A program made the translations under genes and the position numbers. Below are positions 656 through 29,555 of a DNA stretch of 64,000 nucleotides, in pieces. Origin of the DNA: Chiloscyllium plagiosum. Its lineage: Eukaryota. How positions within the stretch are numbered: the first letter of the stretch is position 1; the number at the start of each line of letters is the position of its first letter. The stretch covers positions 27,835,458-27,899,457 of the forward strand of contig NC_057719.1 in assembly GCF_004010195.1 (NCBI RefSeq), given 5' to 3'. The notes beneath the pieces are model-generated. The model did no database searches, was not told the DNA's origin, and worked only from the letters and a program-made list of their open reading frames with translations.

Positions 656-807
656 TTAGTTGATTTGATCCAATGCTCTGAGAACTTCTTCACCCTGAAG
701 CAAGGTTCTGTTGCCTTGGATAGGTGCATTCACTTCACAGTCGTAATTGGTGAGTGTTGGCAAGCTACTGCTCTCTGCTGAGTGAGTGAGAAGCCTTGAC
801 ACTATAT
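656..807 (-). CDS. HIF1A: HIF1A exon 15 coding part, C-TAD with N794 (human N803)
   Basis: ttcag|ATATAGTG...ATCAACTAA, 152 nt. [49 protein letters not shown]. Confidence 0.96.
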
Positions 808-1232
808 CTGAAAGTAAAAGATGACCAGAAATAAATACTCAATCAAAAATAGTTAAGAATTTTGTTTTTCAATTAGTAACTATCTTGTTATTTGCTTTAT
901 TCAATTTAACATAGCATATTCAGTTTTTGAAGTATGCAAAATGCAGTGATTAGATTCAGCAACTTGATACTCTAACCAAGATTTCTGAATTACGAGAACT
1001 AGCACTTGGATTTAAGACATTATTTTTGTCACTATATTTAAGTAATTTCTTAATGTTCCTTGCAGGACAGTTTCCACATTAAAGAAAGGTGGCTGTGCAA
1101 CCTATTTTCAAATTGCAATGATCAACAGATAATTAGATTAAATGTCCAGTCAACCTTTCAAACAAGAGATTACAGTCATACAGCATGGAATCAGACCCTT
1201 CGGTCCAACGTGTCTGCTATAACCAGATACCA

Positions 1233-1515
1233 TAGATTCCCTACAGTGTGGAAACAGGCCATTTGGCCCAACAAGTCCACACCAACCTTGAGTATCCCAC
1301 CCATACCCATTCCCCTAACCTATGCACCTAATCCACACACCCATGAATACTATGGGCAATTTAGCATAGCCAATTCACTTAACCTGCACATCTTTGGACT
1401 GTGGGAGGAAACCCACACAGACACATACAAACTCCACACAGTCAGCCGAGGCTGGAATCGAACTCTGGTCCCTGGCACTGTGAGGCAGCAGTGCTAACCA
1501 CTGGAGCTATCGTGC
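1233..1515 (-). mobile_element. HE1-type tRNA-derived V-SINE, nested in a CR1 3' tail fragment (about 1168-1610)
   Basis: Reverse-complement match to the SINE at 4653-4948. Confidence 0.8.
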
Positions 1516-1789
1516 ATATATCCTTGACTGATCTAGTCTCATCCCCCAGCATTTGGCTCAAATCCCTCTAAAACATCCTCTTCACATAGTTACGTAGATG
1601 ACTTTTAAATGCCCTCTTTTGTTCTGGAGTGTAAAGCTGGTATCATAAATTGAATTTTACATTTTATTTGGGAGGGACAAATGAGTTAAAATCATTTTTA
1701 ATTCAGTTAATACAAGCTGATGACAGAGCAGGAGACATTGTTTACTTGATTTTAGTAAAACCTTTATTTATTAGTCTGCTGTGCAGACC

Positions 1790-2535
1790 CTTATCAAAAA
1801 GTTAGATCATGTGGGATTTAGGGTGAGCTTGCCAATCGGATGCAAAATTAATTTGATGGTAGGAGACAGAAGGTAGTTGTGGAGGTTTGTTTTTATTTTG
1901 GACTGGAGGCCTGTGACCAGTGGTTGGTATTGTATCCACTTTTGTCATGTTATATAAAATGATTTGGAAGAGAATTTTGGAAGCAGGTAGTAAGTTTGCA
2001 TTTGACACCAAAATTGTTGGCATAATGGTCAGTGAAGGTTAAGTATGATTACAAAGAGATCTTGATTAACTGAGCAAATGAGTGGCAGGTGGAGTTTAAT
2101 TTGGGTAAATGCAAGGTATTGCATTTTGGTAAAATGAACAAGTGTAGGATTTGTACAATTAATGGAAGGACCCTGGGGAACGTCGTAGAACAGATGTAGG
2201 AGTTGAGGGGTGACCTTCATAAGTGGTTTATAAAATCATGAGGGGTATAGATAAGGTGAATAGCAAAGATCTATTCCCTAATGGGGGGAAATATATGTAA
2301 GGTGCGAGCAGAAAGATTTAAGGCCGAGGGATTTTTTTTTTAGTGGTTAGTGTGTGGAATGAACTGTCAGAGGAAGAATGGATACAGGTTGAGTTACACA
2401 ATTTAAAAGCCATTTGGATAAGTACATGAAAAGAAAAGGTTTGGAGGGATTCAGTTAAAATGCAGGTAGTAGTTTAGTTTGGGATCACAGTTGGTATGGC
2501 CTAGTTGGACTGAATGGTTTGTTTCATGCTGACTA
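1790..2535 (+). mobile_element. Degenerate CR1-type LINE 3' fragment
   Basis: RT remnants (WRPVTSG, SKFA.DTK) and a 3' tail like the copy at 62798-63531. Confidence 0.75.
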
Positions 2536-2625
2536 CGAACAAGAAAGCCTTTGTCTTTTTTCACCCTGCCCCAGTATTGCAGAACAAAATACCGAGGGGG
2601 TAAAAGAAAAAAAAGTCAAACTTGC

Positions 2626-2743
2626 CAGTTGGTACCAACACGAGTGTCTTCTGTTCACTGTTACTGTCTTCCAATCCCTTTGCACGTTTCCATGTTTGTG
2701 ATGTACTCACTGGAGGGTCAGTGTCACTTTGGAATAATAATCC
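2626..2743 (-). CDS. HIF1A: HIF1A exon 14, with non-canonical GC donor
   Basis: aacag|GGATTA...CCAACTG|gcaagt, 118 nt. GLLFQSDTDPPVSTSQTWKRAKGLEDSNSEQKTLVLVPT, similar to human WKRVKG...EQKTIILIPS. This boundary gives the phase 1 needed to join exon 15. Confidence 0.85.
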
Positions 2744-4485
2744 CTGTTCAAAAGAAAAATTACTGGATTCCAGTTTAACTGTTTAATCAGCAAAATAAAA
2801 ACTGTTGGTATAATAGAAGGTTAAATATTTACATTGTTAGGTGGCTCATATCTTTCAAGTATTGAAAACACCACCTCTTGACAATTATATAACCTTATAG
2901 ATCTACAGACCATCATCAAATATGACTCTGTAGGGATTCTATTTATAGTGTAGAAACAGGCCATTCAGCCCAACAAGTCCACAACAACTCAGAGCATCCC
3001 ACCCAGTCACCTCCCCCAAAATAAACACACACAACCAATAACCCTGTATTCCCCATGGCTAATCCACCTTACCTATCACATCCCTGGACACTGAAAAAGG
3101 GTTATGATAATCCTTAATTCTTCACTGAAGTTCAAATTCTACAATAACATTTGGTGAGGTTATTTTCCAGTTTGCACATTTAATTCATACCATTTGCAAT
3201 TTACAACAAGACCAATTTGGAAGCTTTATAAAAATGGACACTATTTTGGAAAATAATCTCAAAACTGAAAATTCCAGAATTCAATATAATGAAAATTGAG
3301 GCATGGTCAATCATTACAAGTCATTGGCTTTTCCTATAGGACTGATGATTTACAAACATTAATGATCAGATATTGGCATTGCAGTAATTCTTGTCATCTG
3401 TGTAGATTGATGTACACACAAAACTAGATGCAAAATGCAGTGCAACTTCATTCGTATCCTTATGGCGACCTCACTTGAATTTATAGTAAATATTAAAAAA
3501 TGAATTAGTTATTTTGTACCCTAGTTAGGGCTCTTACAGAAATGCTTAGCAATTGCAATTGTGTGGTCATGCAGATAAGAATTTAATTTTTGAAAAATCT
3601 GTTTGGGGATGTGGGATCACTGGCTAGGTCACCATTTATTCGGTTTCCTAATTGTCCAGAGGGTAGTTTAGAGTTAACTGTATTGCAGTAGTTCTGGAGT
3701 CACAATAGTAGATTCCTTTCCCTAAAGGACATCAGTGAACCAGATGTGTTTTATGACAAACGGCAGTGATTACATGGCTACCATTAGGCTAGAGTTTTAT
3801 TCCTAGATTATTGAATTCAAATTTTTGTTTTTAAAAAACTAATGACAGGAACAATGATTGCGAGAAAGCAATAAACATAAGTGTTAAAGACAATTTGAAG
3901 TAGCTATTACAATTCTTAGAAATGCAAACTCCTTGTTACTGAATTATTACAAATTATTGCAAGCACACATCTTAAATATAGAACGCGTGTTGTGAAGTTT
4001 TAACTCAAAATAAAGCCCCACTATTGCATATTTTGTTGCAAACCTTGAACAGAGCATCACATAGCTGATTAGTTGTTTTCCAACATTGCAAAAGACTGGA
4101 AACAAAATTTAGTATGCTGAGATTCAACCATATAAAGGTGTAAAAGCCTGAACTGTACTGGAAGTGTTCTTTTAAAAAAGTATTACGTCCGAGTCTCATC
4201 AGGATTTCACTTGAGGTCAATGCAAAAACAACAGAATGACTTGATAGTTAAATCATAGTTCATTTGCCCCTGCACAATCACTTGTGCCAAAAACAGTAAT
4301 TTAATTTTTGTTTCCAATTATCACAATACACAACAGTAAAAATTCACTGTTGTTCAAGATAGAAAAGTGGTTGAGAGTCTGAGGAAGCTTGTGGGATGGA
4401 GAGTATTTTTGGTGGGATCAAGAGGCCAGGCATTGATTAGTGGGGTAACACAATGGTAAGTGCTTAGGCCCTAATTATGCATGGA

Positions 4486-4646
4486 GATCAGAGTCCAGAT
4501 TGGAGTAGTGCTGGAAAAGCACAGCAGATCAGGCAGCATCCAAGGAGTAGGAAAATAGATATTTCGGGCAAAGGCCCTTCACCCGAAATGTCTATTTTCC
4601 TGCTCCTCGGATGCTGCCTGACCCTTCTGTGCTTTTCCAGCACCAC
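4486..4646. mobile_element. Fold-back Penelope-derived short element (hammerhead core deleted), inside an L2/CR1 fragment
   Basis: Inverted arms at 4505-4568 and 4582-4646; same family as 47382-47610. Confidence 0.75.
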
Positions 4647-4652
4647 TAATGT

Positions 4653-4948
4653 GGGCGGCACGGTGGCACAGTGGTTAGCACTGTTGCTTCACAGCGCCAG
4701 AGACCCGGGTTCAATTCCCGACTCAGGCGACTGACTGTGTGGAGTTTGCACGTTCTCCCCGTGTCTGCGTGGGTTTCCTCCCACAGTCCAAAGATGTGCA
4801 GGGTCAGGTGAATTGGCCATGCTAAATTGCCCGTAGTGTTAGGTAAGGGGTAAATGTAGGGGTATGGGTGGGTTGCGCTTCGGCGGGTCAGTGTGGACTT
4901 GTTGGGCCGAAGGGCCTGTTTCCACATTGTAATGTAATCTAATCTAAT
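4653..4948 (+). mobile_element. Full-length HE1-type tRNA-derived V-SINE
   Basis: A box TGGCACAGTGG at 4664, B box GGTTCAATTCCC at 4708, CR1-like 3' tail, (TAATC)n end. CTAATGT TSD at 4646-4652 and 4949-4955. Confidence 0.9.
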
Positions 4949-5269
4949 CTAATGTTGACCCTAGCTATTCATGGTGTATATATAAGTGACCTGAATGAGG
5001 GCACAAAATGCAATATTTGCAAATTAGCTGACAGCACATAATATAGGCAGGATTGGGAGGTGAGGATGACGCAAGAAAGTTTCAAGATGATTTTAACAAG
5101 TTGTGTGGGCAAACATTTAGCAGATACATGACAGTATAGCTAAATGTAAAGCTACACACTTCAGTGTGAAAATCATAAATCTTATTTAAATAGTGATATA
5201 TTGGGAAGCCTGTTTACTTATACATCAGAGAAAGCCGACAGGCAGGTGCAGCAAGCACCTTGGAAGGAA

Positions 5270-5585
5270 GTGGCCTCATGGTATTCTCACCAGACTAATC
5301 TTGGGACCCGTGTTTGAAACCTGCCGTGGGAGATGATAGTTTTTGAATTTGTTAAAACTGTGGAGTTAAGAGCCTAACGATGACCACAAAACCTTTTGTA
5401 GATGGTTGGAAAAACCCATATAGTTCACTAAATGCCTTTTAGGGAAGGACGGTGCCATCCTTACCTCATCTGGTATGGGACTCCAGACCCACAGCAATGT
5501 GGCTGGCTCTTAACTGCCCTTAGTTAGGTCAACATTTATTGTCTAGCCCTAAGTTAGCAACACACACATTTCATGAGTGAAGAGA
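5270..5585 (+). mobile_element. Second tRNA-derived SINE family (other copies about 3596-3830 -, 16845-17110 +, 40140-40505 +)
   Basis: Copies share the core GTTCACTAATG...TTTAGGGAAGGA...CTCCAGACCCACAGCAATGTGG...CTCTTAACTGCCCT. Confidence 0.65.
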
Positions 5586-6139
5586 AAAATCAAGAAATAG
5601 ACACATTCAATTTTAAAGCATTATTGAGTATGGGAAGAAATATGGTAATGAGAGAGCAGCTATACTGACCTGAAGAACTGAATGGAAAAACACAAAACCT
5701 GAACTGCACGAGTTTTCCAGTTTCCATTTTTATGATGTCTATCTTTCAGCTAATAGACAAATGTAATTTCCTAATTCCAGCAGATATTTAGGTACAGTTA
5801 TATAACTGATGCTAGTACAAACAAAATACTTGTGATCTTTCTGCAGTTGCTGCTTACATAGAAAGATTAACTTCTATTGCTTGTGTTTCAGTTTTGGCCC
5901 ATTTTAATGACATGAGGATTGTGCAATTTCCATAAGGTTTTATACACTAAGGAATTTTTGATCATTATGCTAATTGGGCTCTACTATACAAGGGGTTCTT
6001 CAATTTCCTTTACAAAAAATGTCAATTCTTATGTTTGTCTGAGAGCATGTCCTACAGTTTAGAAAGTACTCAAACAACCTGCATTATGGTAATAGCAAAA
6101 TTTGTCCACAAGCTGCCACTGCAAAAATACACCTTCAAT

Positions 6140-7905
6140 GACGCTTCAAACAAATCCCGAAAAGATATTATGGGGGCACTGGCTGACATTCTGGCAGCAG
6201 AGTTAGCCACCGATTCCAGAAGACTGGAGTGTACCAAGTGTTGTGCCCTTATTCACGGAGGCTGCAAAGAAACACCTGGAAACTGTAGACCAGTAAGCCT
6301 AACATCTGTGCAGGTAAGTTACTTGAGAAGATTCTGAAAAAGATATACATGCATTTGGAAAGACAGGGTTTGATTAGGAGTAGTCAGCATGGCTTTTGTT
6401 TGAGAGATCATACCTCATAAGTTTATTAGAGTTCGTTGATGAAGCGACCAGAAAGATTGACGAGGGCAGGGTGGTAGATATAGTCTACATGAATTTCAGT
6501 AAGGCATTTGGTAAGATTCCACCATGGTAGGCTGTTCTGGAAGGTTAGAGCACATGGAATCCAGAGGAATCTGGGAAATTGGATACAAAATTGGCTTGTG
6601 GTAGGAAACTTGTTGGACTGGAAGCCTGTGACTAGTTTGGTGCTTCAGGAGTCGCTGCTGAGTCCATTGCAGTTTGCTATCCGTATGAATAATTTGGACA
6701 AGAATGTACAAGGTATGATCAGTAAGTTTGCAGATGATACTAAAATGGGGAATTGGGCTGCGAAATGGCTTATGGAGTTTGAGGTCTTGCATTTTGTAAA
6801 GTCAAATCAATGTAGGAGTTTCATGGTGAACGGTAGGGTCTTAAGAAGACTAGTGAAACAGAGGGACCTTGGAGTTCAAATTCACAATTCTCTGAAAGTG
6901 GAGTCACAGGTAGACAGGGCAGTGAAGGAGGCTTTTGGCCACTGGCCTTCAATCAGAGCACTGAGTATACATGTTTTAAAGTTATTCTGCAATTCTACAG
7001 GACATTAGTGAGACTGCACTTGGAGTAGTGTGTTCACTTTTGGTCACCTTTCGGAAGGATGTTATTAAACTGGAAAGAGTGCAGAAGAAATGTACAAGGA
7101 TGTTGCCAGGACTCAAGGGATTTAGTTACAGGAATTAGAGCATAGAAGAGATCTTATAGAAGTGTATAAGATCATGAGGGGCATGGATAAGGTGAATGCA
7201 TTCAGTCTCCCAGGGTTGGGGAAATTGAGGACTAGAGGGCATTAGTTTTGGCAGATGGAGTACAATGTGGAAAAGAGAGAGACTATTTTCTAAATGGGGA
7301 GAAAATTTAAAGTCTGAAGTGCAATGAGACTTGGAGTTCCATCCAGGATTCTCTCAAGGTCAACTTGCAGGTTGAGTTAAAAAGGCAAATGCAATGATGG
7401 CATTTATTTTGCGAGGACTTGAAAATAAAAGCAGTGATGTACCTCTGAGGCTCTGGTCAGACCCCATTTGGAGTAGTGTGTGCAGTTTTGGGCCAGGTCA
7501 TAGAGTATATTAAAGCCTGCGATAGATAGGTATACAGGGGATTAGGTTTCTCCCTGTAACCCTTATCAGCCACGATTGGTGGAGCAGACTCAATTGGCTG
7601 AATGGCCTTAATTTGTGCTTCTATGTCTTATGGTTTAAGGTTGGAGGGGAAAGAATAAATGGGAACCTGAGGGGCAACCAGAGAACCAAGGGTGGTAGAC
7701 ATATGGAATGAGCTGATAGCGGAAGTGATTGAGGTAGGTACATTAACATTTGAAAGGAATTTGAACAAATACATGGATAGGAAAGGTTTAGAAGGATATA
7801 GGCCAAGTGCAGGAAAATGGGGTTATAGTGTGGATGGACATTTTAGGCGGCATGCACCAATTTGGATTGAAGTGCCTGTCTCTATGCTGTTGGACTCTGA
7901 CTGGT
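6140..7905 (+). mobile_element. CR1-type LINE RT/3' fragment with nested LINE pieces
   Basis: ORFs 6035-6337 (PGNCRPVSLTSV) and 6508-7008 ([15 protein letters not shown]). Confidence 0.85.
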
Positions 7906-7959
7906 GACATGTGAAGAAGAAATCTATAGAAATTAAAGCTCACCATCTCCTATTTTTGC

Positions 7960-9950
7960 CTTCAACAGAATCACAGATCTCCAGCAGAGAAAAAGGCCCT
8001 TCAGCCCATCTAGTCTGTCTGCCAAAAACAACTACTGACTATTCTAATTTCATTTTCCAGCACTTGGCCTGTATCCTTGTATGCCGTGGCATCACAAGTG
8101 TATGCTGTAACATTTCTTACATGCAATGAAAGTTTCTGCCTCACAGGCAGATTCCCACTGTTTGAGAATGGAATAGTACAGGTTAGATGGGCTTCAGATT
8201 GATTTCACAGGTTGGTGCAACATTGAGGCCGAAGGCCCTGTACTGCACTCTAATGTTCTGTGTAAACATCCTGCTCCTTTATATTAAAATTTATGGCTCC
8301 TGGTAACTGATCCCTCACCAAGATGAAAAGTTATTTCCTTCTATACCATTGATAATTTTATACATCTCAATCATGACCCCCTCCTGCCCCTAGTTCCTTC
8401 ACAATTAGAACATGCTGTAGCCCAGGCAACATCCTGCTAAAAAAAAACTCTGCACCCTCTCCAGTGCAATCTCATCCTTCTTATACTGTGGATGCACATA
8501 ATATTCTGGCTGTGGACTAACCAAATCAATGCGCACATTAAGATTGCCCTGTTTTAAGTCACTCTTGTCTAATACCTTTTAAATAGAACTGGCATTCACT
8601 TGTAGCATTGTGGATTGTTGTAGAGAGTCAGCCATAGAGCATTTCAAGCCCTTCAGCCCACCAGGTCTATGCCGACCAATAAACTACACTAATCCCATTT
8701 ACCTACATTTTGGTCTATAGCCTACTTTGTCCAGCATTTTAAGTACTATCCAGCGAGAACCTATGCAGCCTCTCCTCCTGAGATTTTTGATCCCAGGCAA
8801 AGCCTTACCTGAAGAAGGAGCAGTGCTCTGAATGCTTGTGATTTCAAACCTGTTGGACTATAACCCGGTGTCCTATGACTTCTGACTTTATCAGGATTAA
8901 ACTCCATCTGCCATTGGTCTATCCAATTTACCAGCTAGCCAATAATCAGACAGTAGCCCAAGACCATCCTCACCACTGTCAACAACACCCCTCATTTTCA
9001 TTTCATCTGCAAACTTACAAATTAAAGTTTCTAAATTCACCTCGAAGTCCAAACACTGACTCCTGTCATACACCACTGGTCAAAGGTCTTCAATTTGCAA
9101 AACAACCCTCCTCTATCACCCCGTGCCTCCTATTTGTCAGCCAATTTTAGATGGTTTACCAACTTGCCTTGGATTCCATGGGCTCTTAACCTTTAAGATC
9201 AGACTTCAATGTGGGATGTTGTCAGAGGCCCTCTAGAAGTCCATGTGAGCCACATTGATTGTACTAAGTTCATCAATATATTTAGTCACCTTTTCAAATG
9301 ACTCAACTAAATTAAACAAATCTGCATTGCTTTTCCAAGTATTTATTGATTGTGTCCTTCAGAATTCTTTTCAATAATTTTCCTACCACAAACATCAGAA
9401 TAACTAGCCTGTAATTGCCTGGCCTATCCTTGCTGTCCCTCTTGAACAAAGGAACCACATTGTCTATCCTCCAGTTATTTGGCTCTTCACTTGTGGCCAG
9501 TGAAGTAGAAAATCTGCCAGGGTCCCAGCAATCCCCTCCCTTGCCTCCCATTATAAATCTGAAATACACTTCATAAAGCCCAGTAAAATATCTAATGCCT
9601 CCTCATCAGTCTTAACCATCCCAACTGACAAGTTGGCTAAAGGTCTTTCTCCTATGTGAATACAGAGAAGTATTAACTTAAGATCCCAACTATGTCCACT
9701 GGCTCTGTGCACAGGTTGCCCTTTCGTGTCTAATAGGTCCTGCTCTTTTCCCAGTAATCCTCCTAGTCTTAATATAAGAAATTACAAAAAGCCCTTGGTC
9801 CCATCTGCAAAGATATGGCCCCTTTTTGCCCTCCTAATTTCTTTAAGCAACCCTCTACACACTAAACATCTGACGGGCCTCCCCTGGTTTTTTTAATGCT
9901 CCAGACATATGGTTCCTTCTTTGTTCACAAAACTCGATCTCTTGAGATCC
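7960..9950 (-). mobile_element. Degenerate CR1-type LINE fragments
   Basis: ORF 9312-9569 (WRIDNVVPLFKRDSKDRPGNYRLV) plus reverse-complement 3' tails. Confidence 0.75.
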
Positions 9951-10691
9951 AGGATTCCCGGACTGTCTGTCATCACTCTGAATTCTCACTACACTACTTT
10001 TTTCAAAAGAACTTGCAACTAAGTCTAAATTTGCAAAGTGTAAGTAGCTGCTACCAGTCTATTGATATTGAAATTGGCCTTCCCTCAGTTTTGATACTTT
10101 TGCACTACCGACCATTCCCCTCTAATTTTCTTACCGACTGCAAAGGTCTGTGTGCAACAGTGACCTCTGGAAGCGGAAGTCAATGTTTTAATTGGCATGC
10201 TGACATAAATCATGTGCGCAGCTCAGATGGATGTTGCTCCCAACCTCTGATCACTGTTGAAACTCATTAACTCTCTAGCTTGAGGCTTACTTCTTTGAAG
10301 TAAGAGTAGATTTGAGCTGCAAGATCATTGTTCGCTTTCTGCGTATCTGCTTAAAAGGTGGCAGGAGGGTCAGGGAGAATACAGTGGCAAGGGGTGAAAT
10401 GAGGTGAGCGGAAGAGTTAACATATTTTTTAAAATGTACTCATTTAATACAAAATACTTAGGCTTACAGGGTATAACATTTAGTTTTTGATGGCAAATGA
10501 TCATAAAATTAAACTAAAGCTCCAAATTAGCTGCAGTGGGAAAATCTGAATCAAAGTTGTTCCATTTAAACTATACACTACACAGGTATGCAACCACCAC
10601 ATTAAGCAAGTAATTATTGTCCTGCATTCAATTCAACAATATTTTCTACACTCAGTTGGGGCTACACAATGGCATCAATTCAGTCACTGAA

Positions 10692-10819
10692 TTCCTGAAG
10701 AAGGGCTCATGCCCGAAACGTCGATTCTCCTGCTCCTTCGATGCTGCCTGACCTGCTGCGCTTTTCCAGCGACACATTTTCAGCTCTGATCTCCAGCATC
10801 TGCAGTCCTCACTTTCTCC
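10692..10819 (+). mobile_element. 128-bp Penelope-derived insertion with minimal hammerhead ribozyme core
   Basis: 17-bp TSD TCAATTCAGTCACTGAA at 10675-10691 and 10820-10836. Core CTGAAGA-A-GGGC-TCAT-GCCC-GAAA-CG-TC at 10695-10722. Confidence 0.85.
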
Positions 10820-11275
10820 TCAATTCAGTCACTGAAAAACTTAGTTGAAAGTAGGCTACTCAGCTCAGACTGATTTGACTGTGGTCTGAACTCCTTTCCT
10901 GCCTATCCCCTCGTAACCCTTGACTTTTTCATTGATCAAAAATCATTTAACTCTGTTTCAATTCAATGATCCAGACTTCACTCCTCTTTGGATAGAGAAT
11001 TCCACAGAGTAACAAAGAGAAAAAATCCTTTTCTCAGTGTTAAAGGGAAATCTGTCATTTTAAATTGTTTCCAACTCTAGACTCCCTCACAAGGAAAGCA
11101 TTTTCTTAACATCCACTGTGTCAAATTCCTCACAACTTCTACATCTTTCAATAAACTTCCCTGCCCATATTTACACAAGCATAGTTATTGAGTAACCTCC
11201 CAAAAGCTACTTACTACATATGCTGCAGTGAGATACATAGCGACTTTGTCATGGGCAATTAAAGTTAACACTTAC

Positions 11276-11393
11276 AATTCCAACTGCTTGGAAAAGGGAG
11301 GCTGCGTTTTCCAGCTTGCGTTTCCTCGGTGAGTTGTGCAAAATCAGTAATTGCGGGCTCAGCTCTTCATTTGGAGCTTCTCCTATTGCAGAT
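11276..11393 (-). CDS. HIF1A: HIF1A exon 13, C-terminal NLS
   Basis: tgaag|ATCTGCA...GGAATT|gtaagt, 118 nt. [39 protein letters not shown]. Confidence 0.9.
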
Positions 11394-11721
11394 CTTCAAG
11401 AAATCAAAATAGTTAGTGTAATCGTATTAACACAAATCCCTCCAACAGTCATACTTTAACAAAAAAAGGCTGTGTATTGGAGCACACTACATTTACTTTG
11501 ACTACACAGTGCTAGAATCCAGGCAAAGCAAAGCACACAGCTTATCAGTCAGCTTCACTTTTACGTAGGGAAATAGTTATATTTTAAAGGGCTCATTCCT
11601 ACTGAGAACTGAAATGAGATTTAACTTCATTCATAAGACCCTCAAAAAATTTATTCCACAGTGGTAAAGATTACAGTGGAGCATCAGGGTGACTGATCTT
11701 TAGAATAGCATGGAAACATCT

Positions 11722-12318
11722 TAGAGGAATCCTTATTATCCGAATGAGACGGGCGGGCATTATTTCGGATAATCAATTATTCGGTTAATCGATTCAATGC
11801 CTTTCCTCTGGGGCAAGGAGTTTTCTGTGAAGGAAATGAGACAGCTGCACACCGCGCGCGAGTCCCTGTCCCCCACCCACCCCCATCCCATCTCCGGGGC
11901 AGCCAGACTGGACACCAACAACAAGACTACTGTTGCTGTAGTTGGGACATTAGTCTCCAAATAGTAAGTGTACACACACACAACTTTTTACTGCAACTCT
12001 TTGACAGGTTCCGCCATTGCTCTGTACAGGACAATGTTGGAGAGATTATCGGGCAAGGTGGGGGGTTAGGGTACATCCCTGTGTAGAACTCCATGGAAAG
12101 TGGAGGGGGGGGGCGGGGGCGGGTGGTCACTCATTTGGAGACGGTAGCACTTCTCGGCAGCACTTCAGTAAGCAGATTTCGTTTTTAATCATTGTAAACA
12201 AAAGATGCCATCAGTGTTGCAAACACGTCTCATGTAATCTTTTTATCAGGACATGGAGATCTCCTTCGGATGATCCGATATTCGGATAATTGATACTTGG
12301 ATAGTGGAGGTTCCTCTG
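11722..12318. mobile_element. Non-autonomous Tc1/pogo (Tigger-like) DNA transposon
   Basis: Imperfect TIRs AGAGGAATCCTTATTATCCGAA / TTGGATAGTGGAGGTTCCTCTG followed by TA. Repeated TTATCCGAA subterminal motifs and retained CpGs. Confidence 0.7.
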
Positions 12319-12479
12319 TATTTGGGTATAATTAACAAATCAAAAGGGAGCACCCATGATGAACTACAGCTGGGGAAAGCATCAAATACAAAGAAATAAC
12401 ATAACTCTGCAAAGGTGAATGGCAGGTCAGATGATTGATCAGAGACAAAGAATTGCAGCCGACTGAAAAGTTTACATTG

Positions 12480-14170
12480 GGGGAAGAGAGAAGGAAGGGA
12501 AGTTAGCTAGGAATGAAAAAAATGGATAGCAAGATTTTGTACAGATACATGAAAAGGAAAAAAATTTAGGATGTTGGTTCTCCAGAAAATGAGGCACCAA
12601 CAGTAGATACAATGATGGATGAAATGAACAAATATTTTGGCTCAGTCTTCACTACAGAAAAGACAAAATTCCAGTAATAGCCATAAATCAGGAATGTAAG
12701 GGAGAGAACTTAGTGTGAAATTACAATAATGCGGGAAATGATACTGAGCAAACTGAAAGAAGCTGCAGGTCTAAATAGATTTTACCCCTCTGGTTTTAAA
12801 AGATGTTTCCACAAAGGTAGTAGGTGCATTGATAATTTTTCAAAATTCCCTTGATGCAGAAAAATGTTTTTGGTACTGGAAAACAGCAAACATAACCCCT
12901 CTAATCAAGAGGGAGCAGAGACCAGAAATGACAGGTCAGTTAGCTTGACTTCTGTCATGGGGAAAATGTTAAATTAATTATTACACAGATTATAGATGTG
13001 CCAACTGGAAAAATTCAAGGTAATAGTGAAGTCCTTACGGTTTGCTCAAAGAGAATTTGTTTAATAAATGTACTTGAGTTCTTGGAGTAACTTGCCATGG
13101 ATAAAAGGGAGCATGGGGACGTACAGAAGGATTTCCCGAAGGCATCTGATAAGGTGCCACGCCATGGTTTAGATAACTGAAAGATCCTGAATGGTCTTGG
13201 CAAGGTGGATATAGAAAGGATCTTACCTCCTGTGGGTCAACCCAGATCTAGAGAGCATTGTTTTAAAATTAGGGTAACCCTTTCAGGAACGCAGCAAATC
13301 GGGGCAGGACCTATATACTCAATGGCAGGGTTCTTTGCCAAATAAAGAGACCTCAAGGTGCAGGTTCATAGTTTTTTGAAGGTGGAGGCACGTGGGGTAG
13401 TAAAGGCAGCGTTTAGGATAGTTGTCTTTATTTTTCAGTGCATTGGCTATAGAAGTTGGGATGTCATGTTGCGACTGTACAGGACAAAGATGTGCCAGGG
13501 TTGGAGGGTTTAAGCTATAGGGAGGGCTAAATAGGATGGGGCTGTTTTCCCCTTCAGAGTCTGAGGTGGACAGGTGACTTTCTATGGTTTTTAAAATCAT
13601 GAGCATGAATAGGGTGAACAACCAAAGTCTTTTCCCTTGGGTAGAGAAATCCAAAACTAGAGGGCACAGGTTTAAGATGAGAGGGAAAAAGATTTAAAGA
13701 GACCTAAAGAGCAAACTTTTTCACACTAAACTAGTGCATGTTTGTAATCAACTGCCTGAAGAAGTGAAGGAGGTTGGTACAATTACAACATTTGAAAAAG
13801 CATTTGGGTGGATATATGAATAGGAAGGGTTTTAAGAGGAACATGGGCTAAAATATTAGTGAATGGAACTAGATTAATTTAGGATATCTGGTTGGCATGG
13901 ACAAGTTGGACTGAAGTGTTGTTCTGTGCTATACAACTGGGATGAGCATTGAGGGGCTTTGGAACTCTGTCACCACCACCTTTGAGGCAGTCATTGAATA
14001 TTTTAAAAACTAAAGTGGAGAGATTGTTAACTGGGGGAGTGAAGGATTGTCAGGGGTTAAATGGAACATGGAATTTGAAGCACAAATAGATAAACCACAA
14101 TAGTCTTGAGTGATAGAGCAGGTACAAGTGGCTAAATTGTCTACTTCTGCTTCAACTTTGCATATTGCTG
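12480..14170 (+). mobile_element. L2/CR1 LINE fragments with a nested CR1 3' end (about 13280-13940)
   Basis: Degenerate RT motifs, and a 3' tail like the one at 62798-63531. Confidence 0.7.
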
Positions 14171-14892
14171 ATGCCACAGACCAGATGGTATTTCTGCACT
14201 CATTCATGAACACCAGTCACAGCAAAAGTAGACCAGGTCAAATTAAATGTTGTAGTCTGTCTGCAACAAAAGGCTCAAAATAAATTGAGGCAGAGGAAAC
14301 TATTTAAACTCAAGCATGGAAAATAGGGCATTTTAGAAATAATGATGAAAAAATTAATGATAATATATGGGAAAAATGCAATAAGCTAACACAATTGCAC
14401 ACAATATTAACAGAAAAAGGAAATTTAAAAGATTTAGATGGCAGTCACATTTTGAACGAGACAGTTATGGAGATGCCTTGTCCCAGAATAGGAAACAGAA
14501 TACAGGACAGCAATTATTTATAGTTAATGTCCAAATAAGTCAAAACACAAAAGGGATGAACTGCAGTTTAAGCTCTTCCCCCAACCACACTGGGCTCCAT
14601 TATTTAAGAAAGAAAAGAGATTGAATAAAGTGCAATTTATGTGGACAAGCACTTTACATTTACTTGCAGTCAAAGTCAATAAGAGTCACATTTGCGCTCA
14701 TCTCAAATGTTTCACATTGTGGCTTTGGAAAGATAGGGGAGTAAATCATAACAGGATACAATCATTACAGTACTTATGGTTATACTATTGTTAAATGGGC
14801 ATTCCCTAAATAGAAAATGCTTGCAAGAGTGACCAGCACCATTGTAATCAAAGAAATATCTATGGAAATCTTAAAATTTGTAGCAACATTAC

Positions 14893-15329
14893 CTTTTGCT
14901 GTAAGCAAGCAATGCCTTCACAGGAGACAAGGAACTTTGTGGACGTGAAATATCTGTCTGCTGAGTGAGCAGTCCTTTTTGGATTCCAGTTCGGACAGGT
15001 GAAGTTGTTCTGTTGCTTTTCTTATCTTGTAATGAACTTGAGCCATTATCCCTTTCAATCGTGTGCGGGGTTGACAAAGGTTTTGTTGCAGCTGAAGACT
15101 TATCATTTTTCCCTGTGTTTTTTAAAACTGAGATGTATTTGTTGGGAGTGCCGTTAACAGATGTCCCAGCCTCTGAGAAGATGTCAATCATTGCATTCAC
15201 GTTTGGTGTACTGGTAGGGGTGGTTTGACAATCAGAAAGTGGTGAAAGTTGATCCAGTGATCGAAGCTGAAAGTCATCATCCATTGGGATGTAAGGAGCC
15301 AACATCTCCAGATCCAAGTTATCAATGTC
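14893..15329 (-). CDS. HIF1A: HIF1A exon 12, C-ODD with P555 (human P564)
   Basis: actag|GACATT...AAAAG|gtaatg, 437 nt. [30 protein letters not shown]; Pro codon at 15294-15296. Confidence 0.95.
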
Positions 15330-16261
15330 CTAGTTAAATGAATCATTACATTAACAAGTAGCCAGACATAATTAAAGACTGCATGAAAGAGGTATTCTTT
15401 TCAATTTTGGACGTAATTTATACAAGTAAATTTTGAATGTTTTAACCAAATGAATTATACTAGCAAACCAAATTCAGTTATTTTTACAATCTCTATATTT
15501 ATAGTAGAGGTTTACACAACAAATACTTAAATTATCTTAATTTTGTGCAATAAATTGCCAAACTCTAGTGAAAGGTTTGACTGAATGTAACAGGGATATT
15601 CTTATTGCAATATCATTGAAACATTTATTTAAACTGAAATGCTGTGTTATCTAGTGTCAGGGGTCATCATAGAATAATCTTTAAATTGCAAAAATTAGTG
15701 AGTTTAGTTAAAGCTGAAACAAAACTGAAAACAAATTTGATAATGGATCTGTCCTTAAGATTGTTGACATGATTAGGTGAAATGATGCAAGCTTGCCAAA
15801 CCTTTTATGGAGGCTGCATGTATTCATTTAAAATAATTTTTTTCTTTATTTTTATTCCATGGTTTGACAATGGATAAAGGGAGGCAAATAAGCTAGATCC
15901 ATAAAGTAAATGTTTATACAGCATAACGGTGTGCTGGGAGAAACAAAAATGTTTCTTTCTGACCCAATAAACTACTCAAAGTACATTCCTGTACACATTT
16001 ACCAAATACTGTAATTTTTCTGTGCCTCCCTATTTGTTCTGTATTTAACAGGTTCTTGAGCCAAAATTTACAGAACCAAATTCATATTTTATGCTGGAAA
16101 AAAACTCTAGTGTAGGGAAACATATACTATTAGGTTTCCTTATCTATATCCCAATCTGTGAGATTATTTTATTAATGCACCATGGTATAATACAGCTGAA
16201 ATCAAAAGTTGCCCTTTATATTTAATACACAAATCTCCTATGAAGAACCGTCACATCATAC

Positions 16262-16384
16262 CTGAACAGAGAATGGGTGTTTGGCCTCTGGGTCAATTGC
16301 GAAAAGCTTTTCCACTATATCCAGTTTGAAATCATTGGAAATGTCTGTGTCGACATTAAAACAGTAATCTGAAGGGCTGCTTGG
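16262..16384 (-). CDS. HIF1A: HIF1A exon 11, N-TAD start
   Basis: cacag|CCAAGC...GTTCAG|gtatga, 123 nt, symmetric phase 0. [41 protein letters not shown]. Confidence 0.95.
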
Positions 16385-17170
16385 CTGTGAAAATAAGTAA
16401 TACAATGCAGTCCAATGGTTTATTTATAAATCTAATCAGGAACTATACAGCACAGAACCGTAACTCTAAGGCTCTTGGGGGGAAGTGGTAGTTTCTTTCC
16501 CTCGGAGCCACAAACCCTGGGTTCCACATCCCATCTGCTCCAAAAGGTATTTAATAACAGATCTCAATGGGTTAGAAAATATCTACGGCCTAAACTTTAA
16601 AATTCAAATATGGACTTTTTCTGTTGCAGTGAGGGCAACAAATTGTTGGGCTTTGTGCTACTTTCCTAATGCTGCCATCCAGCTCTTCATAATTGCCAAG
16701 TTAATACTCGCAGTAAGGGGGAGGTTTAAAAGAATGCAATCAACCCTGCCCTCATATATTCATTTCATTGCAAGCATGAAGGTACAGCACACACCAAAGG
16801 CTACAGACTTTTATAATTTAAGGATAGACAATTACATGGTGGTAATGTTATTTACAGGGCTAGACTAATGCTCTGGTGACATAGGTTCAAATGACAATGA
16901 ATCACAATAATGGTGACCATGAAATCATCATTGATTATCATAAAATCAGGTTCACTAATATTCTGTGGGGGCAAAACAACTACCACTTTTATCTGGTCCA
17001 GTCTATGTGATTCTAAATCCATAGAAACAGTAAAGCAAGGCTCCCAATTCAAGGGCAATTAGGGATGGAAATAAATGATGGCCTTGAGTGATGTACACAT
17101 CCCATGACAACTTTTAAAAATTGATGTTAAAAAACTGAGTTGTTTTACAAACATTTAATAAGAGACTTAC

Positions 17171-17442
17171 TTGCGGTGAATTCTGACTGGTGCAAGGACA
17201 GGAAGAGCTGTTTGACTGCTCATTCATTTGTGGAATGGCAAATGAAAATTCCATTGACTCTTGATTTGTTTCAAGCTTGATGATGGATTCCAAATTCAAG
17301 GCTGGGTCTGTGCTACTGCATAGTGGCTTTTTTGCATCAGATGGAGGCAGAGGTGACAGTGCTATGTCTACAGTCTTCTGGTTTGTGGAGGAGGGCAACA
17401 TAACATCATTGTAGAGTGGGACCTCATTAAACTGCTGCATTT
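17171..17442 (-). CDS. HIF1A: HIF1A exon 10, ODD
   Basis: ttcag|AAATGCAG...CCGCAA|gtaagt, 272 nt. EVPLYNDVMLPSS...LSPLP...DPALN. Confidence 0.92.
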
Positions 17443-19493
17443 CTGAATTCAAAAAAAGTTAATTTTACAATCTTATTGAGTCTATAAATTCTTATTCATC
17501 CTGTCAACAACCAAGTTCTCAAATCTGAACAAACTAAATCCTGACTGTAGTCTCGTGAATTTGAAGCTAATTAAAATGACACAATGATGAAAAAGCAATT
17601 TAGAATACACATCCCTTTAAGTTGAATACTGTGAATCTGAACGTAAAGCTCTTTCACTATTCCTTCATTAAGTATTGATCCTTCAACCAAAATAATTAAT
17701 CAATCATCTGGCCATTATTGCTCTGAGATCTTGCTTGACTACCAATTTTTCTTGAAGTTAAACTGCTATTGTAAACTAAGAACAGTGCATATGAATAGTG
17801 CCTTTATATCTCTGGAGGTCATGAAATTTGCAATAAATGCAAATTTTCTTTCATTCAATATCTTTACAATATAGTTGAAGGGCACTAACTGGTTTCCAGT
17901 TTGAATAAGATTTTCATTCATCAAGTTTAATCCTGTAGAGATGTTCTGCTAGTTTGGGACTTCTGAATTGGGAAAAGCTTTGGGAACACTTGAAATTTCC
18001 CATGGCTCCACTGTAGAAATTATAAGTACATACTTTCTATAACCTATATTCAACTTTACAGAAGCTAGCAGATTTGTGGCCAATGAAGCAAAAAGGTGTG
18101 AATGCAAAGGAAAGTAGGACATACGCCAAATGAGAGAAATAGAACTGAACATGAGAACCAAAAGTACAAATTAAAAAATATTAAAAAGCACTGAAGAAAA
18201 ACAGGATGAAAATCTTCTTTCAATCCTTCTCAGCTCTGCATGCAAGCTGGGACAGCAGTTATTAACTGGATGTTTTTCCATGATAATCAAACCCAATCTC
18301 ATTCTCAAATTTAAAACTAAACATTTCTATCAAGGCTTACTAAATAGTATCTACAAGGATGAAGCTTTTCTTCTTCACACCATGAAGCTAATTCAGCAAA
18401 AACTAGATATTTGACCTTTCAAACACACAGGCCTCGTCATTTATTTGCTACCAGAAATATCATTTTTTGATTTGTCAGTATGGTTTGTACCTCAATTGCT
18501 GCACCCTCAAAAGTTCAATCTTGCTCCCTGTTCCATCATGAATAAACATCAGGTCATGTTGCATACACATACCAAAGGTGTCCAGCTTTTCCCCTCTATT
18601 TACCATGCTAAAGACTACAACTGTTAACTCTTCAGGCTGATCTCTCAGGCATAAGGTTTGAATGAGCTGAATAGCCCTCTGTTTAATAATGCTAATCTTG
18701 TCCCAGTTTTACTCAATTTCATGCCTTAGCTAAATTTAATCATTTAACTGTTTCTTGCAGGTCAATTTTAATGGTGAGCAGAATTGTGGTTTCCCATCAT
18801 GGCACGTTTAATGCTGCGCAGATTCTCAAAGTACTTGTCATTTCACGCTGAACATCTTCAATGCTGTCACCAATGTTAAGATCTACGCTGACAAACCTTT
18901 AGTCCAATTCATCCACCACGATGTTATATTTAATTTGCCTTAATACTCTATTCCTACTCACTCTCATCTGTTTCTCAACACACCTAACTGAATTTCCTTT
19001 TGAAGGTCTTTTTCTACCAAATCCCAGGAACCTGCTTTATCCCTCCTGATATGTATTCAACTCTAATTTCAGTTAGTTTCTTAATTTATCACACTTCTGA
19101 TGGGCAATCACAACAACAGATTTGAGCCATTACAATCCAGCACTCTGGAACGTTATCCCAACGCTCCTGCAATGTATCCTTCACCACTTTCAGAGGCCAA
19201 TGCAAAACTTACTACTTCAAATTATCCTTCCTAAGGCTGATTATTATTAGTGGTCAATTTCTAATCCCTCTCACAACATAACACTGGGATATTTCACTCT
19301 ATTCAAAGGTGCTATACAAATGCAAGTTGTTAATAATTGCTCGTTTTGTTTCTTCAGACACCGATAAAAGTGTGTTATAATACCTTGGAATTTGAACTAG
19401 ATTCCAAGGTAAGTTTTTTGCAAACACAGTGACTCTTGCAGACATATAGACATGAAACATTCATTAATATGACGCATAGCAACAATTTCCAAC

Positions 19494-19705
19494 CTGAGGG
19501 GCTGAAATCCAGTGAGACAACTGTATCACCAGCAGCTGGTGCAAGTTGAGTTAAAGCCTCTGGTTCCTCTTTCAGTTTGTCAAAAAGGTTATTGGTCTCT
19601 TCATTTGTGGATGAAACAGGATGCTTACTAGGTTCCTCAGGTTTCTCGACAGGTACACATTCAATCTGATCCAGTGAAAGAATCACTTCTTTTTCAACTA
19701 AACCA
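19494..19705 (-). CDS. HIF1A: HIF1A exon 9, N-ODD with hydroxylation target P397 (human P402)
   Basis: ctcag|TGGTTTA...CCCTCAG|gttgga, 212 nt. LFDKLKEEPEALTQLAPAAGDTVVSLDF; Pro codon at 19537-19539. The donor is weak but phase-consistent with exon 10. Confidence 0.9.
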
Positions 19706-19889
19706 CTGAGGGTGGAATAAAAACAGGACAAGTTACCCCCAACAGCCTCATAGAAGATTTCACTAGGTTGGTGCATGTGCAATCACATGTACAATATATA
19801 TTATTGATTATGCAAATGTTATACAAGTTATTTAATTATAATGTGTTAATACTTTCAAAATACATACAAGATCCCCATTAGACACTTAC

Positions 19890-20037
19890 CTCAAAACATA
19901 GTTCACACAGACTATGCACTGAGGCTGGGAGTTTTTGCTGTTGTAGATCACAGTGGCCTGTGTCTCCACCCAAACATAGCCACCTTCTTTGCCCAGCATC
20001 CTGTACTGACCAGTTGTGGCCTGACCTTTAGTAAATA
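19890..20037 (-). CDS. HIF1A: HIF1A exon 8, PAC
   Basis: tttag|TATTT...TTGAG|gtaagt, 148 nt. [48 protein letters not shown]. Confidence 0.95.
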
Positions 20038-20239
20038 CTAAAGCAAGCAAAGTATAAAAAAAGTATTAATTATTATTTATAAGCAGAGCATTTTCAGCTA
20101 AGACTAGCACTTCACAATAGGGAGCACAGACAAGTTACATGTTTATACAGTGCAGTACTCATTAAAGGGAGAGCAAGTACTCAAATGCCACGCATGGAAT
20201 GCTACTAGAAGCCTAAGTGTGCAGCATCAGACTCCACTA

Positions 20240-20497
<258 letters not shown>

Positions 20498-21159
20498 TTA
20501 TATATGCACACAGTAAAAAAAAAAAATCAATTGATGTTCACTATGAAACTGTTATGATGTAAAATAAAGTGCATTTCTTTCATCCATTGTCAGGTTAGAC
20601 ATACTGATCAGAACTTTCTAAGATTAGACTGAGGGAGCATAATTTTTTTTTCAATCAGCGTGTGAATCTATAATTTCAGAATTTACATTCAAAACAATGA
20701 AGACTTTGAGAGAAGGGAAGACTGTTACAAATTATAAAAACTAAGTATTTTCTCCTTCAGCTAGCTCAAGTACTTTAGGAGATTAGTTTTACCTAAATTA
20801 CCTTAGATTTGTTCGTACAAAAGGCTTTATAAAGCTATACAATATGGTACTTTTCTATTCTTCTCCAAATGTTAAGTTTTTAAAAAACAAAACAGCTGAA
20901 AGTATCATTAAATTCCACAACTTTGACTGACAGTTACAGGAGTTTTACTGCTCATGGCACATACAGATGAATAATGAGACAAAGAAGGAAAAACTGTTCA
21001 GGTATGCAATATTTTCACCTAAATTCAATTTCTACTGAAAAATGCAGTTTCAAATCTTATAATTTAGTAGCACGTGCTTAGTGTAATAATATGCAAACAT
21101 AAATGTGCAGGGTTTTACTCCAACATCAGCAATTTTTTGGATATAATTGCTGGCCAAGT

Positions 21160-21490
21160 TGGCAGCATTATCTAGTCAGAAGGCTAAGGGTTCCAAGTTC
21201 CAGTAACTTAGACAAACATCTGCGTGTCACTCCAGTGCAGTACTCCATGGTGCCTTCTTTCAGAAGTGACATTAAACTAAGGCTCCAGGTTCAACTAAAA
21301 GATCTAACAGCATAGGCTCAAATAAAATGACTGAAGTTATCCCAACTGTCCTTTTTCAATAAGTACCTCAAAAAAAAAATGTGAAAAGATTCACTTATTT
21401 GCTACATTTCCTATAACAATGACTACATTTATAATACATTATTACTAATAAAGCATGGGATGTGGTGCTACATAAACTCAAGTCTCCTTT
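21160..21490 (+). mobile_element. Degenerate DeuSINE-like element
   Basis: CACTCCAGTGCAGTACT...GGTGCC..CTTTC.GA...GACATTAAAC resembles the Deu core as I recall it. Confidence 0.5.
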
Positions 21491-22279
21491 AGAATATGCT
21501 TAAGATTTATGGAGAGGACTTAAAAGTGTTAATTTATGAAACAAACTCATTATGTAAAGTGCATATATTTCAGTCCAATGTATAATTCAGTATACAAGTT
21601 TGAAGAGAAATGAATGCAAGTTAAGTTTTTAAATTCTTCAATGGTTATATAACGATACATCAGTTATTTTGTTGAATACAATTAAGTGAATCAGTTTAAA
21701 GCACTCTCCACCTCTACTAACTCATGTGAGAAACAAGCGAATCACCCAAAAACTTACAGAAACAAACTAAAGTAGAAGTCAGGTTTTGATTTTTTGGATA
21801 ATTATTTTTGGAATAATTAGAGACATCGGATAATTGCTGTCTTACTAATTTTAAGCACAGAAATTGTGCGCTACAAGCTCAAAGAAAATATTATAAGCAA
21901 GAGATTGTATTTTCTTCAAAATACCAGTTAGGCTTACAGCAAACTGTTGCCAAGCCAAGAAACCAGATTTAACAAAACATTAGAATAAGTCTTGCCTTTT
22001 CAGCGAAATTAATTTTAAACAGTTTTAACTAATTGCTTTTTGATATTCATCCTTTTGCGTTCCAAATAGTATTTTCATTGAGAAATTATTTTTCTTGTTA
22101 CTACTTTCTTTTTTTCTCTACAGAGAAAAAAAATCTTTATCAGGAGAGAATTTGGGGCATATCTGAATTGTTCACATTAAGACCTTGATAAAGTTTAATT
22201 GAACAATAGGTTTTTACCCCATCAGACAGAAAAACTTAAAATGTAGAATGGAAAATGTTTCCAATGTCACACAACTCAC

Positions 22280-22482
22280 CTCTCATCACAATAAGAAAAC
22301 TTCATATCCAGGCTATGACGACTCAGAAATGTCTTGCTATCCAGTGGTACCTCTATGTTGGAGGGGTGTGGAATAGGTTCACAGATCAAAATCAGACAGG
22401 TCATGGGTGGCTCTTTGTAACCACAATGGGTCTGCTCATTACTGGATTTGTATACTCTAATATGTCCTGTGCAATGTAGGAC
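22280..22482 (-). CDS. HIF1A: HIF1A exon 6, PAS-A end / PAS-B start
   Basis: tttag|GTCCTA...GAGAG|gtgagt, 203 nt. [11 protein letters not shown]...[34 protein letters not shown]. Confidence 0.95.
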
Positions 22483-23109
22483 CTAAAGATGATAATGAAA
22501 GTTAGTTTTTGTAGTTCCCAGGGTTTTAAGCACCCCATTAACTAAGTAATTTAGTAACATTTGTGAAGCAGATTACAATATGTCTTGATCAGAATTTTTG
22601 CTTGTCAGTAAGAACCTTCTTTTAAAAAAACAAAAGAAACTTGTTGCTTCCTATACAAGAACTACTAAGATCCTCTCTTTAACTCTAATGTCATAGAACT
22701 TAGATCAGTCTGTATCAGTTCATGAAGTTCTTAGGCAGTTTTAGGGAAGCAGTAACTCTTCACATACGAGGAAATATCAACTTAACCCCAGCATCTGCTA
22801 TAGAATCTCTTCCACCAGCTCATCAAGTAATAATTGTTCTTGACATTTCAAGGCGAAGGAATACTTTCAACTCATTCCTAACTTAGACAAATCAATGAAC
22901 TGGATTTTACTTTGTCAAATCACTACATTGTTTATTCAGAAAATGAATTCCTAACCTCACTTGTTACTTTTCAGCAAGGGACATTAAATAATAACCAAGA
23001 GTCAATCTTGGGTAATTTTCATTCCTTGATGTCTTAAACAATCAAAATAATGGTAGAGTTTTACAATTTGCTCATCTGAAACCAGAGATTAAAATCCAGT
23101 TTAGGAATT

Positions 23110-25783: not shown

Positions 25784-25896
25784 CTTCCATGTTGCAGACT
25801 TGATATTAACAGTGCGTCCTCGGCTTGTTAAAGTACACTTCATCCTTAAGAAGAAATTGCGCTCAGTGTTCTGATCCTTCCCCTTCTTCAGAAGTC
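25784..25896 (-). CDS. HIF1A: HIF1A exon 5
   Basis: tttag|GACTT...TGGAAG|gtgaga, 113 nt. [37 protein letters not shown]. Confidence 0.95.

Positions 25897-29438: not shown

Positions 29439-29555
<117 letters not shown>

Follow-up and report, generated by a model that had tools for sequence, protein, structure and literature searches.

Short hammerhead-bearing pseudo-LTRs of a Penelope-like element in Chiloscyllium plagiosum: junctions and a candidate route of insertion

Within HIF1A of Chiloscyllium plagiosum lies a 128-bp insert that begins three bases before a minimal hammerhead core and is flanked by identical 17-mers, and the question that it raises is whether such an insert is a retrozyme, spread in trans as a ribozyme-processed RNA, or an end-piece of a coding retroelement. 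The initial annotation took the first view. Here we use the junctions of this insert and of its relatives, in the window (the whole stretch of 64,000 nucleotides that was analysed) and across the genome, to weigh the two.

The insert and its parent element

The insert occupies 10692-10819 between 17-mers at 10675-10691 and 10820-10836, a perfect 17-bp target-site duplication (TSD), and we number the unit so that 10692 is +1 and 10691 is -1. Up to 1-2 nt at each TSD end are shared with the element itself (A at -1; T or TC at +129/130), which makes a true stagger of 14-16 nt probable. One contig record from a related organism carries the empty site for this insert: it joins 10651 to 10820 with 21 bases between, where the window has 168, a length difference of 147 with 145 expected for an empty site. 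Two sequencing runs of organism B matched the window flanks and the insert ends without substitutions. Insert, TSD and hammerhead core are thus as first described, at a site that is empty in a related organism, and the TSDs given for the related copies at 47382 (12 bp) and 62605 (14 bp) were found as well. No TSD of 10 or more bp was found at 4560, 8809, 24726, 27718, 49985 or 61030, and those at 58829 and 26270 are weak, with mismatches.

The genome contains 79,942 exact matches to a 31-mer taken from the unit (control, 0), and the 10692 insert is one of ~80,000 near-identical short end-pieces of a protein-coding Penelope-type element. A shared C-rich 3′ UTR of 90+ nt precedes the unit in 8 of the top 30 matches. 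At 97 loci the exact match continues beyond +128 and enters an ORF; among the 90 of these ORF-linked loci that were examined, 24 also have 30+ nt of UTR upstream, which makes them partial tandems. This ORF leads to reverse transcriptase (RT) motifs (Pfam RVT_1, E 9e-4, below cut-off; Atlas, 0.96-0.97 to HTH_animal/RVT_1 clusters). In an older relative (locus L011), a CX4CXXC linker is followed by GIY-YIG (E 0.005, below cut-off) and then by the same UTR and terminus; a GIY-YIG motif was also seen by eye at loci L145 and L147, and a CHRRKCKTC-type motif stands ahead of GIY-YIG at L011 and L147. A PDB sequence search with the RT piece gave 0 matches, and the fetched DNA held no intact ORF or full-length source copy, the long copies being broken or gapped by N.

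Because coding copies have the unit both after the 3′ UTR and ahead of the ORF, it is almost certainly the pseudo-LTR (pLTR) of a Penelope-like element (PLE) with RT and GIY-YIG endonuclease (EN+). As in EN+ PLEs generally, the repeat comes after the 3′ UTR and overlaps the RT-ORF start, GIY-YIG is C-terminal, and pLTRs occur inverted, with a 30-40-bp tail on one end and a TSD. A CX2-5CXXC linker between RT and EN is reported as a feature of the Neptune clade (PMC8557442), and by its CX4CXXC linker the parent element appears Neptune-like. Of the original proposal, the minimal type-I Penelope-pLTR hammerhead, its palindromic stem III and mobilisation by a Penelope RT/endonuclease stand; the separate retrozyme-like non-coding family does not, for 31 of 148 arms extend 41+ nt into the 3′ UTR and the 97 exact copies above enter the ORF.

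Random genome regions totalling 770 kb hold 131 related arms, and the genome total is roughly half a million, many as ~95-bp hairpins, whose arms would be a notable source of intronic double-stranded RNA. We found no literature on this Chiloscyllium family or on a cap-derived G in PLEs, in a search mainly of open papers without supplements; a prior description of the family may exist.

Table 1. Features of the window (coordinates are window positions)
Feature	Position	Strand	Remarks
HIF1A (host gene)	739..60602	-	first coding exon probably 60602-60574
HIF1A exons	near 739, 14889-15329, 17114-17458, 19375-19782, 19963, 20449, 22317, 29510, 37648	-	
Inverted pair, truncated cores	4490..4650		older
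Decayed family-E pLTR	8805..8900	+	stem II GGAGC/GCTCC, palindrome AGCT
Left TSD copy	10675..10691	n/a	last A also element A(-1), likely first RNA base
Solo pLTR, unit positions 1-128	10692..10819	+	young Penelope-like family
Minimal type-I hammerhead motif	10695..10722	+	predicted cut after 10722
Tail between the two 3′ end points (~+93, ~+128)	10785..10819	+	~33-35 nt
Right TSD copy	10820..10836	n/a	first T (or TC) also the element's continuation
Decayed family-D pLTR	24720..24830	+	
Decayed single arm, unit 18-123	26180..26279	-	
5′-truncated coding Penelope-like copy	26697..27853	+	linker/endonuclease 27072-27290, 3′ UTR, decayed family-D pLTR ~27714-27853
Inverted pair of 5′-truncated coding copies	33302..34650		endonuclease 34030-33660 (-), 34100-34249 (+)
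Family-C pLTRs of the 33302..34650 pair	33429-33302; from 34591	-; +	
Inverted pair, same young family as 10692	47370..47622		tail-less arm - (47474-47378), tailed arm + (47480-47603)
TSD of the 47370..47622 pair	47370-47381 / 47611-47622		12 bp
Decayed family-D pLTR	49907..50012	-	
Inverted pair	58735..58954		older; decayed core on + arm
Decayed pLTR resembling family D	61015..61126	+	edge of CpG island upstream of HIF1A
Inverted pair, older subfamily	62591..62770		both arms without core, one from unit +32; 14-bp TSD

Copy ends, inverted pairs and tandems

Arms were collected by genome position via an anchor at +49 to +79, so that 5′ ends were unselected; 16 of 229 arms were dropped for short flanks, about ten 5′ ends cut by N runs were kept in the counts, and top-match sets, which are biased to full query coverage, were excluded from breakpoint counts. 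The 3′ ends of the 148 exact-anchor arms fall at two places, with 78 at +86 to +100 and 66 at +123 to +129 (55 at +128 itself), and 45 of the 5′ ends fall at -3 to +1, which is 3-6 nt before the core. Just one of these arms starts at the cut site (+32). In 80 random regions with 30 young arms, 6 start at -3 to +1, 8 carry UTR and 0 start at +32. On the other side of the cut site, none of 443 core-bearing arms (mostly anchor-selected) and none of 65 arms from an anchor-free random set ends at +31. Since no copy ends and almost none starts at the cut site, the copied RNAs still held an uncut GUC-GA junction. Directly after +128, 44 of 60 arms have T, as the element itself does at this position, which suggests primer pairing of 1-2 nt there.

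Two minor classes of 5′ end accompany these. A secondary cluster at -64 to -81 (12/148 arms) lies just upstream of the C-rich UTR tract and is possibly an RT stall on G-rich cDNA. Among older subfamilies, 5 of ~130 arms start at +32; microhomology may explain this small excess, and the count leaves room for a minor cleaved-template class in those subfamilies. With the one in the window, six older-subfamily arms start exactly at the predicted cut site (L101, L108, L127, L322, L369 and window position 62695), and at L114 (~1,850,000) a +32-start arm follows an apparent repeat of neighbouring DNA with a family-D relic, which is possibly a captured or duplicated flank.

We propose the following route. 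The RNA would begin with the A of TCA-TT, which lies 4 nt ahead of the hammerhead core, and its cap, when copied, would be the source of the G found at many junctions. The endonuclease would make a staggered cut of ~12-16 nt, after which both target 3′ ends would prime on a single RNA, one of them at +128 and the second at ~+93, and the two cDNA ends would be joined by microhomology to give inverted pairs. With a single primed end, the cDNA end would join the target directly, as at 10692, and UTR-bearing copies would result from priming at the downstream pLTR of read-through RNA. We consider it likely that the 10692 insert is a solo pLTR of this kind, made when priming inside a capped, uncleaved sense RNA was followed, 129 bases on, by run-off at its 5′ end.

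Inverted pairs bear on the priming step. One tailed and one tail-less arm make up 48 of 52 pairs (2 of the 52 have arms >1 kb apart and are probably not true pairs), and 37 of 52 have a TSD of 12-16 bp. At diagnostic subfamily sites the two arms agree in 33/34, 44/48 and 47/49 cases vs 0.50-0.63 expected. We lean toward twin priming on one RNA, at ~+93 and ~+128. Fold-back self-priming, possibly on an antisense template and with the tail left by endonuclease resolution (Arkhipova et al. 2013), is an alternative for the pairing step only; it, too, would give concordant arms, and it predicts the ends that lie close together in both arms of UTR-bearing pairs and fits palindromic junctions. However, the arm that reaches furthest 5′ is the tail-less one in 27 of 48 pairs (the tailed one in 21), so a single folded-back cDNA cannot make the tailed arm from the tail-less one, and copying in reverse fits no better. 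Against it are also the solo copies with a TSD, which occur with both 3′ ends, and the extra G, which sits at the sense-strand 5′ end. We regard fold-back as unlikely.

That G is the main feature of the 5′ junction. When the match of a copy stops at A(-1), the next upstream base is G in 5,051/8,402 cases (60%), and when it stops at T(+1), in 1,193/6,909 (17%); ~29-31% is expected from base composition, and C is what the element natively has there. Organisms B and D likewise show a G between joints at this position; the 10692 copy itself lacks it. In ~6/7 independent solo G cases the G is also present in the target or partner arm, the partner arm could supply it in ~22 of the first 100 G cases, and in solo copies it usually lies within a GA(T) microhomology with the target. 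We therefore see the G as biased microhomology more than as a clean untemplated base. An extra G derived from the cap is reported at full-length L1 5′ junctions (PMC11702581), and the pattern here fits a cDNA ending in an extra C, as for capped L1 RNA, without being proof of a cap; a C added by terminal transferase would give the same appearance.

Two other sources of the G were rejected. Among UTR-bearing copies of the main UTR variant, no more than 153 depart from it at -2, and the first 100 of these listed have 12 G, 16 A and 72 T, which rules out a UTR polymorphism. Strong-stop transfer, where cap-containing cDNA jumps to the 3′ pLTR, predicts a G excess at -2 in UTR-bearing copies, and the same 12 of 100 do not show one.

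The boundary site TCA-TT is one that we take to be initiator-like, and its counterpart in family D, equally far from the core, is TCA-GTT. In family D the boundary recurs, with ~56/100 copies stopping near the A; G follows in only 10/25 (counted by eye), no clear excess. No DPE match was found by eye at the canonical spacing. A poly(A) single-cell RNA run (X21, ~2% read, 3,105 reads aligned) had no pile of starts or ends, covered both strands alike and gave the ORF ~1-8 reads, and a second run (X22) gave 0 reads; a search across sequencing runs listed no RNA run with the sequence. Native C stands upstream of A(-1) in 26,171 further copies, ~69 of the first 100 of which continue into UTR; the downstream pLTR is thus the source of ~44% of the copies that are intact through +1, and run-off can account for a part of the family only.

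Capped run-off nonetheless appears fairly probable to us when it is set against ordinary 5′ truncation of copies from the 3′ pLTR, at an RT stall or microhomology hotspot before the core and with no transcript end. Truncation would account for the many copies that do start from the 3′ pLTR and end at scattered UTR positions or in the -64 to -81 cluster, for the frequent coincidence of the junction G with target or partner, and for the lack of a visible RNA start in run X21. But the pile-up spans no more than 4 nt and is seen whether the partner is target, inverted arm or ORF piece, truncation would end in the native base and favour a target C at -2 rather than G, the G excess is specific to -1, and the site is the TCA-TT or, in family D, TCA-GTT sequence above. 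We judge truncation improbable.

Short tandems form a further class of junction. The ORF piece stops at +187 to +208 in 33 of 90 ORF-linked loci (p ~5e-11 vs a uniform spread over 146-252); a pile of 37 ORF ends at 253 was discarded as an artefact of a deletion in the reference copy. In 25 of those 33 a new unit follows, mostly starting a few bases from -1 and often with G, to give tandems of ~196-202 bp with two hammerheads (25/90 loci). Their junctions vary by locus, with at most 2 alike, so these ~200-bp tandems are made anew and not amplified; they may be raw material for retrozymes (cf. the proposal of Li et al. 2026). Taken jointly, the genomic junctions might record Penelope insertion in vivo on capped, uncleaved sense RNA with two fixed priming sites, followed after run-off by re-entry of RT at ~+190-205, which would build two-hammerhead tandems and so give rise both to animal retrozymes and to the partial tandems on which Penelope elements depend. 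To this joint reading we give just short of even weight.

The initial reading, in which a non-autonomous retrozyme makes a (dimeric) RNA that its hammerhead cleaves and that then becomes circular and is inserted in trans, is very improbable and is largely refuted for this family: although the motif is intact in 60/124 arms, two-hammerhead tandems do exist and animal retrozymes, found in one chondrichthyan genome, have been proposed to derive from pLTRs (bioRxiv 2026.07.22.740005), the unit boundaries lie off the cleavage site (0/443 3′ ends and 1/148 5′ ends there), the unit is not independent of but contiguous with the UTR and ORF of a coding element, the 10692 copy is solo and most others are solo or inverted, short tandems make up 25 of the 90 ORF-linked loci, out of ~80,000 arms, with junctions that differ by locus and no long arrays in the fetched DNA, and the motif is minimal and non-canonical with a weak stem I (U.U at pair 3).

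The hammerhead motif

The motif at 10692 consists of CTGAAGA (10695-10701), an extra A (10702), stem II GGGC/GCCC (10703-10714) and GAAA (10715-10718), then CG and TC, which include the palindrome ACGU and the GUC. It has the features of the minimal hammerheads (min-HHRs) of PLEs, namely the core, the extra base after A9, stem II and a palindromic stem III. Strict motifs number 45 in 770,191 random genome bases vs 0 in a reversed control, well in excess of chance, or ~2x10^5 genome-wide by extrapolation. Rfam gave no match at the gathering score.

Stem I, which has 4-5 bp in min-HHRs, is the weak part. In the young family its native pairs are C-G, U-A, U.U and A-U, and it is missing from the minimum free energy (MFE) structure; in other families it has 3-4 good pairs. 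It had been suggested that GAA from the TSD completes stem I. Such pairing requires a U to bulge out (-8.7 kcal/mol) and is less favourable than a register one base away (-10.0); longer MFE folds lack stem I.

Between families, stem I changes from U-A to A-U, stem II from G-C to A-U and from C-G to G-C, and the palindrome from ACGU to AGCU, while the core is constant. These compensating changes around a constant core argue that the source elements kept the hammerhead fold, presumably under selection. In the dispersed copies, the hammerhead is most likely a passenger, since the RNAs that were copied were uncleaved. For such dead-on-arrival copies a core-vs-flank comparison is uninformative, and it is the comparison between families that is useful; a divergence within the family of 7/1,240 (core) vs 92/1,488 (flank) was set aside as evidence because the filter favoured the core and the flank included a subfamily site. 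Common non-CpG variants occur at N7, loop II, position 1.3 and the 3′ flank, and the invariant core has none. Poor cleavage, or cleavage that depends on protein, is reported for PLE hammerheads (PMC4209133, PMC11167929), and their role in PLEs has been called unclear (PMC8557442).

Two other families have distinctive hammerhead surroundings. Family D (L092, L114, L039 and others) has a pyrimidine tract plus CAG, splice-acceptor-like, between the hammerhead and the ATG, and the young family lacks the AG. Family F (L100, L106, L121, L123, L171) has U after A9, a long stem II and a covarying stem I.

Known elements and the HIF1A window

The min-HHR, inverted pLTR, tail, TSD and solo pLTR are already described for EN+ PLEs, and the ribozyme itself is ordinary; the value of the present data lies in the junction statistics. 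In the accessible parts of the sources cited here, the closest hammerheads are the metazoan PLE min-HHRs (Cervera and De la Pena 2014, PMC4209133), which share the CUGANGA/GAAA core, the extra base between A9 and 10.1, G10.1-C11.1, the palindromic 15.2-16.2, a short stem I, and occurrence mostly as single dispersed motifs and opposite-strand pairs. Their reported hosts are fish, coelacanth (~4,000), frog (~9,000) and reptiles, with no shark among those named, and here the host is Chiloscyllium, with the extrapolated ~2x10^5. The proposal made there, cleavage followed by circles as templates, does not fit the copies here.

A close mechanistic match is Poseidon of Anolis (PAc; Frangieh et al. 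2024, PMC11167929), for which two internal RT start sites, priming on both strands and uncleaved RNA as substrate are reported; as here, the two starts bound the tail and the hammerhead lies near the ORF start. In vitro, PAc showed no strand difference in start site, whereas here 48/52 pairs use a different site for each arm; run-off at a capped 5′ end with an extra G has no counterpart in the accessible part of the PAc account; and, unlike PAc, the element here has the Neptune-like CX4CXXC linker. The existing anole in vitro system is one for which the cap-like G, the one-tailed pairs and re-entry at +190-205 give base-level predictions.

With EN+ PLEs (Arkhipova et al. 2013, PMC3846280; Craig et al. 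2021, PMC8557442), the family shares head-to-head inverted pLTRs, a 30-40-bp tail on one arm, TSDs, partial tandems and solo pLTRs. Those accounts explain TSD-less solos by recombination or deletion, and inversions by self-priming with antisense RNA as template, whereas here the solos come with TSDs and the evidence points to two priming events on one capped sense template. Whether the PLE template is sense or antisense is stated there as an open question (PMC3846280), as is, elsewhere, how the tandem/pLTR structure is regenerated (PMC2377424); the Penelope pLTR carries an internal promoter (PMC2377424).

Non-LTR retrozymes (Cervera and De la Pena 2020, PMC7229834; Li, Clavereau, Pollet, bioRxiv 10.64898/2026.07.22.740005) are likewise non-coding, with a type-I hammerhead, pLTR origin and long TSD; they are tandem repeats processed to circRNA, whereas the copies here are solo or inverted and bounded by RT start sites and a likely transcript start. 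L1 (PMC11702581) shares the extra G at the 5′ junction, an inverted segment primed by the second target end and a discrete TSD of 12-18 bp, but in L1 twin priming the inverted segments cover adjacent parts of the RNA, and here both arms cover the same ~95 nt.

In the window, the 10692 copy is on the strand opposite HIF1A and hence antisense in its pre-mRNA. A PLE expansion is reported in whale-shark introns (bioRxiv 443036). The family had been said to colonise HIF1A introns; the window has 3 exact 31-mers vs 1.4 expected from genome density, which does not bear out colonisation, and the intronic placement fails for the copies at 61030 and 62605, which lie upstream of the likely first exon (probable ATG at 60602). 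The GIY-YIG elements near 26697 and 33302 do terminate in related repeats, as had been noted. The motifs listed with them belong only in part to one family, 8809 being of family E, 24726, 27718, 49985 and 61030 of family D (61030 by resemblance) and 33302/34591 of family C. Pfam searches of the decayed window ORFs returned HIF1A domains only.

Several neighbouring features were also seen. Some 410 bp separate the likely HIF1A start codon (60602) from the decayed hammerhead pLTR at 61015-61126, upstream of it. At 47067-47398 there is a direct tandem duplication of 167 bp (98.8% identical), which takes in the left TSD of the 47382 pair and the beginning of its inverted arm and is either a real duplication or an assembly artefact; the pair itself sits within a decayed LINE-like element (45131-48970) that has an endonuclease-like ORF by eye, with no Pfam match. 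A putative GC-rich SINE-like repeat (4652-4950) directly follows the 4560 inverted pair, and another decayed Penelope-like RT-thumb/endonuclease fragment, of a different family, lies at 36042-36944 (+).
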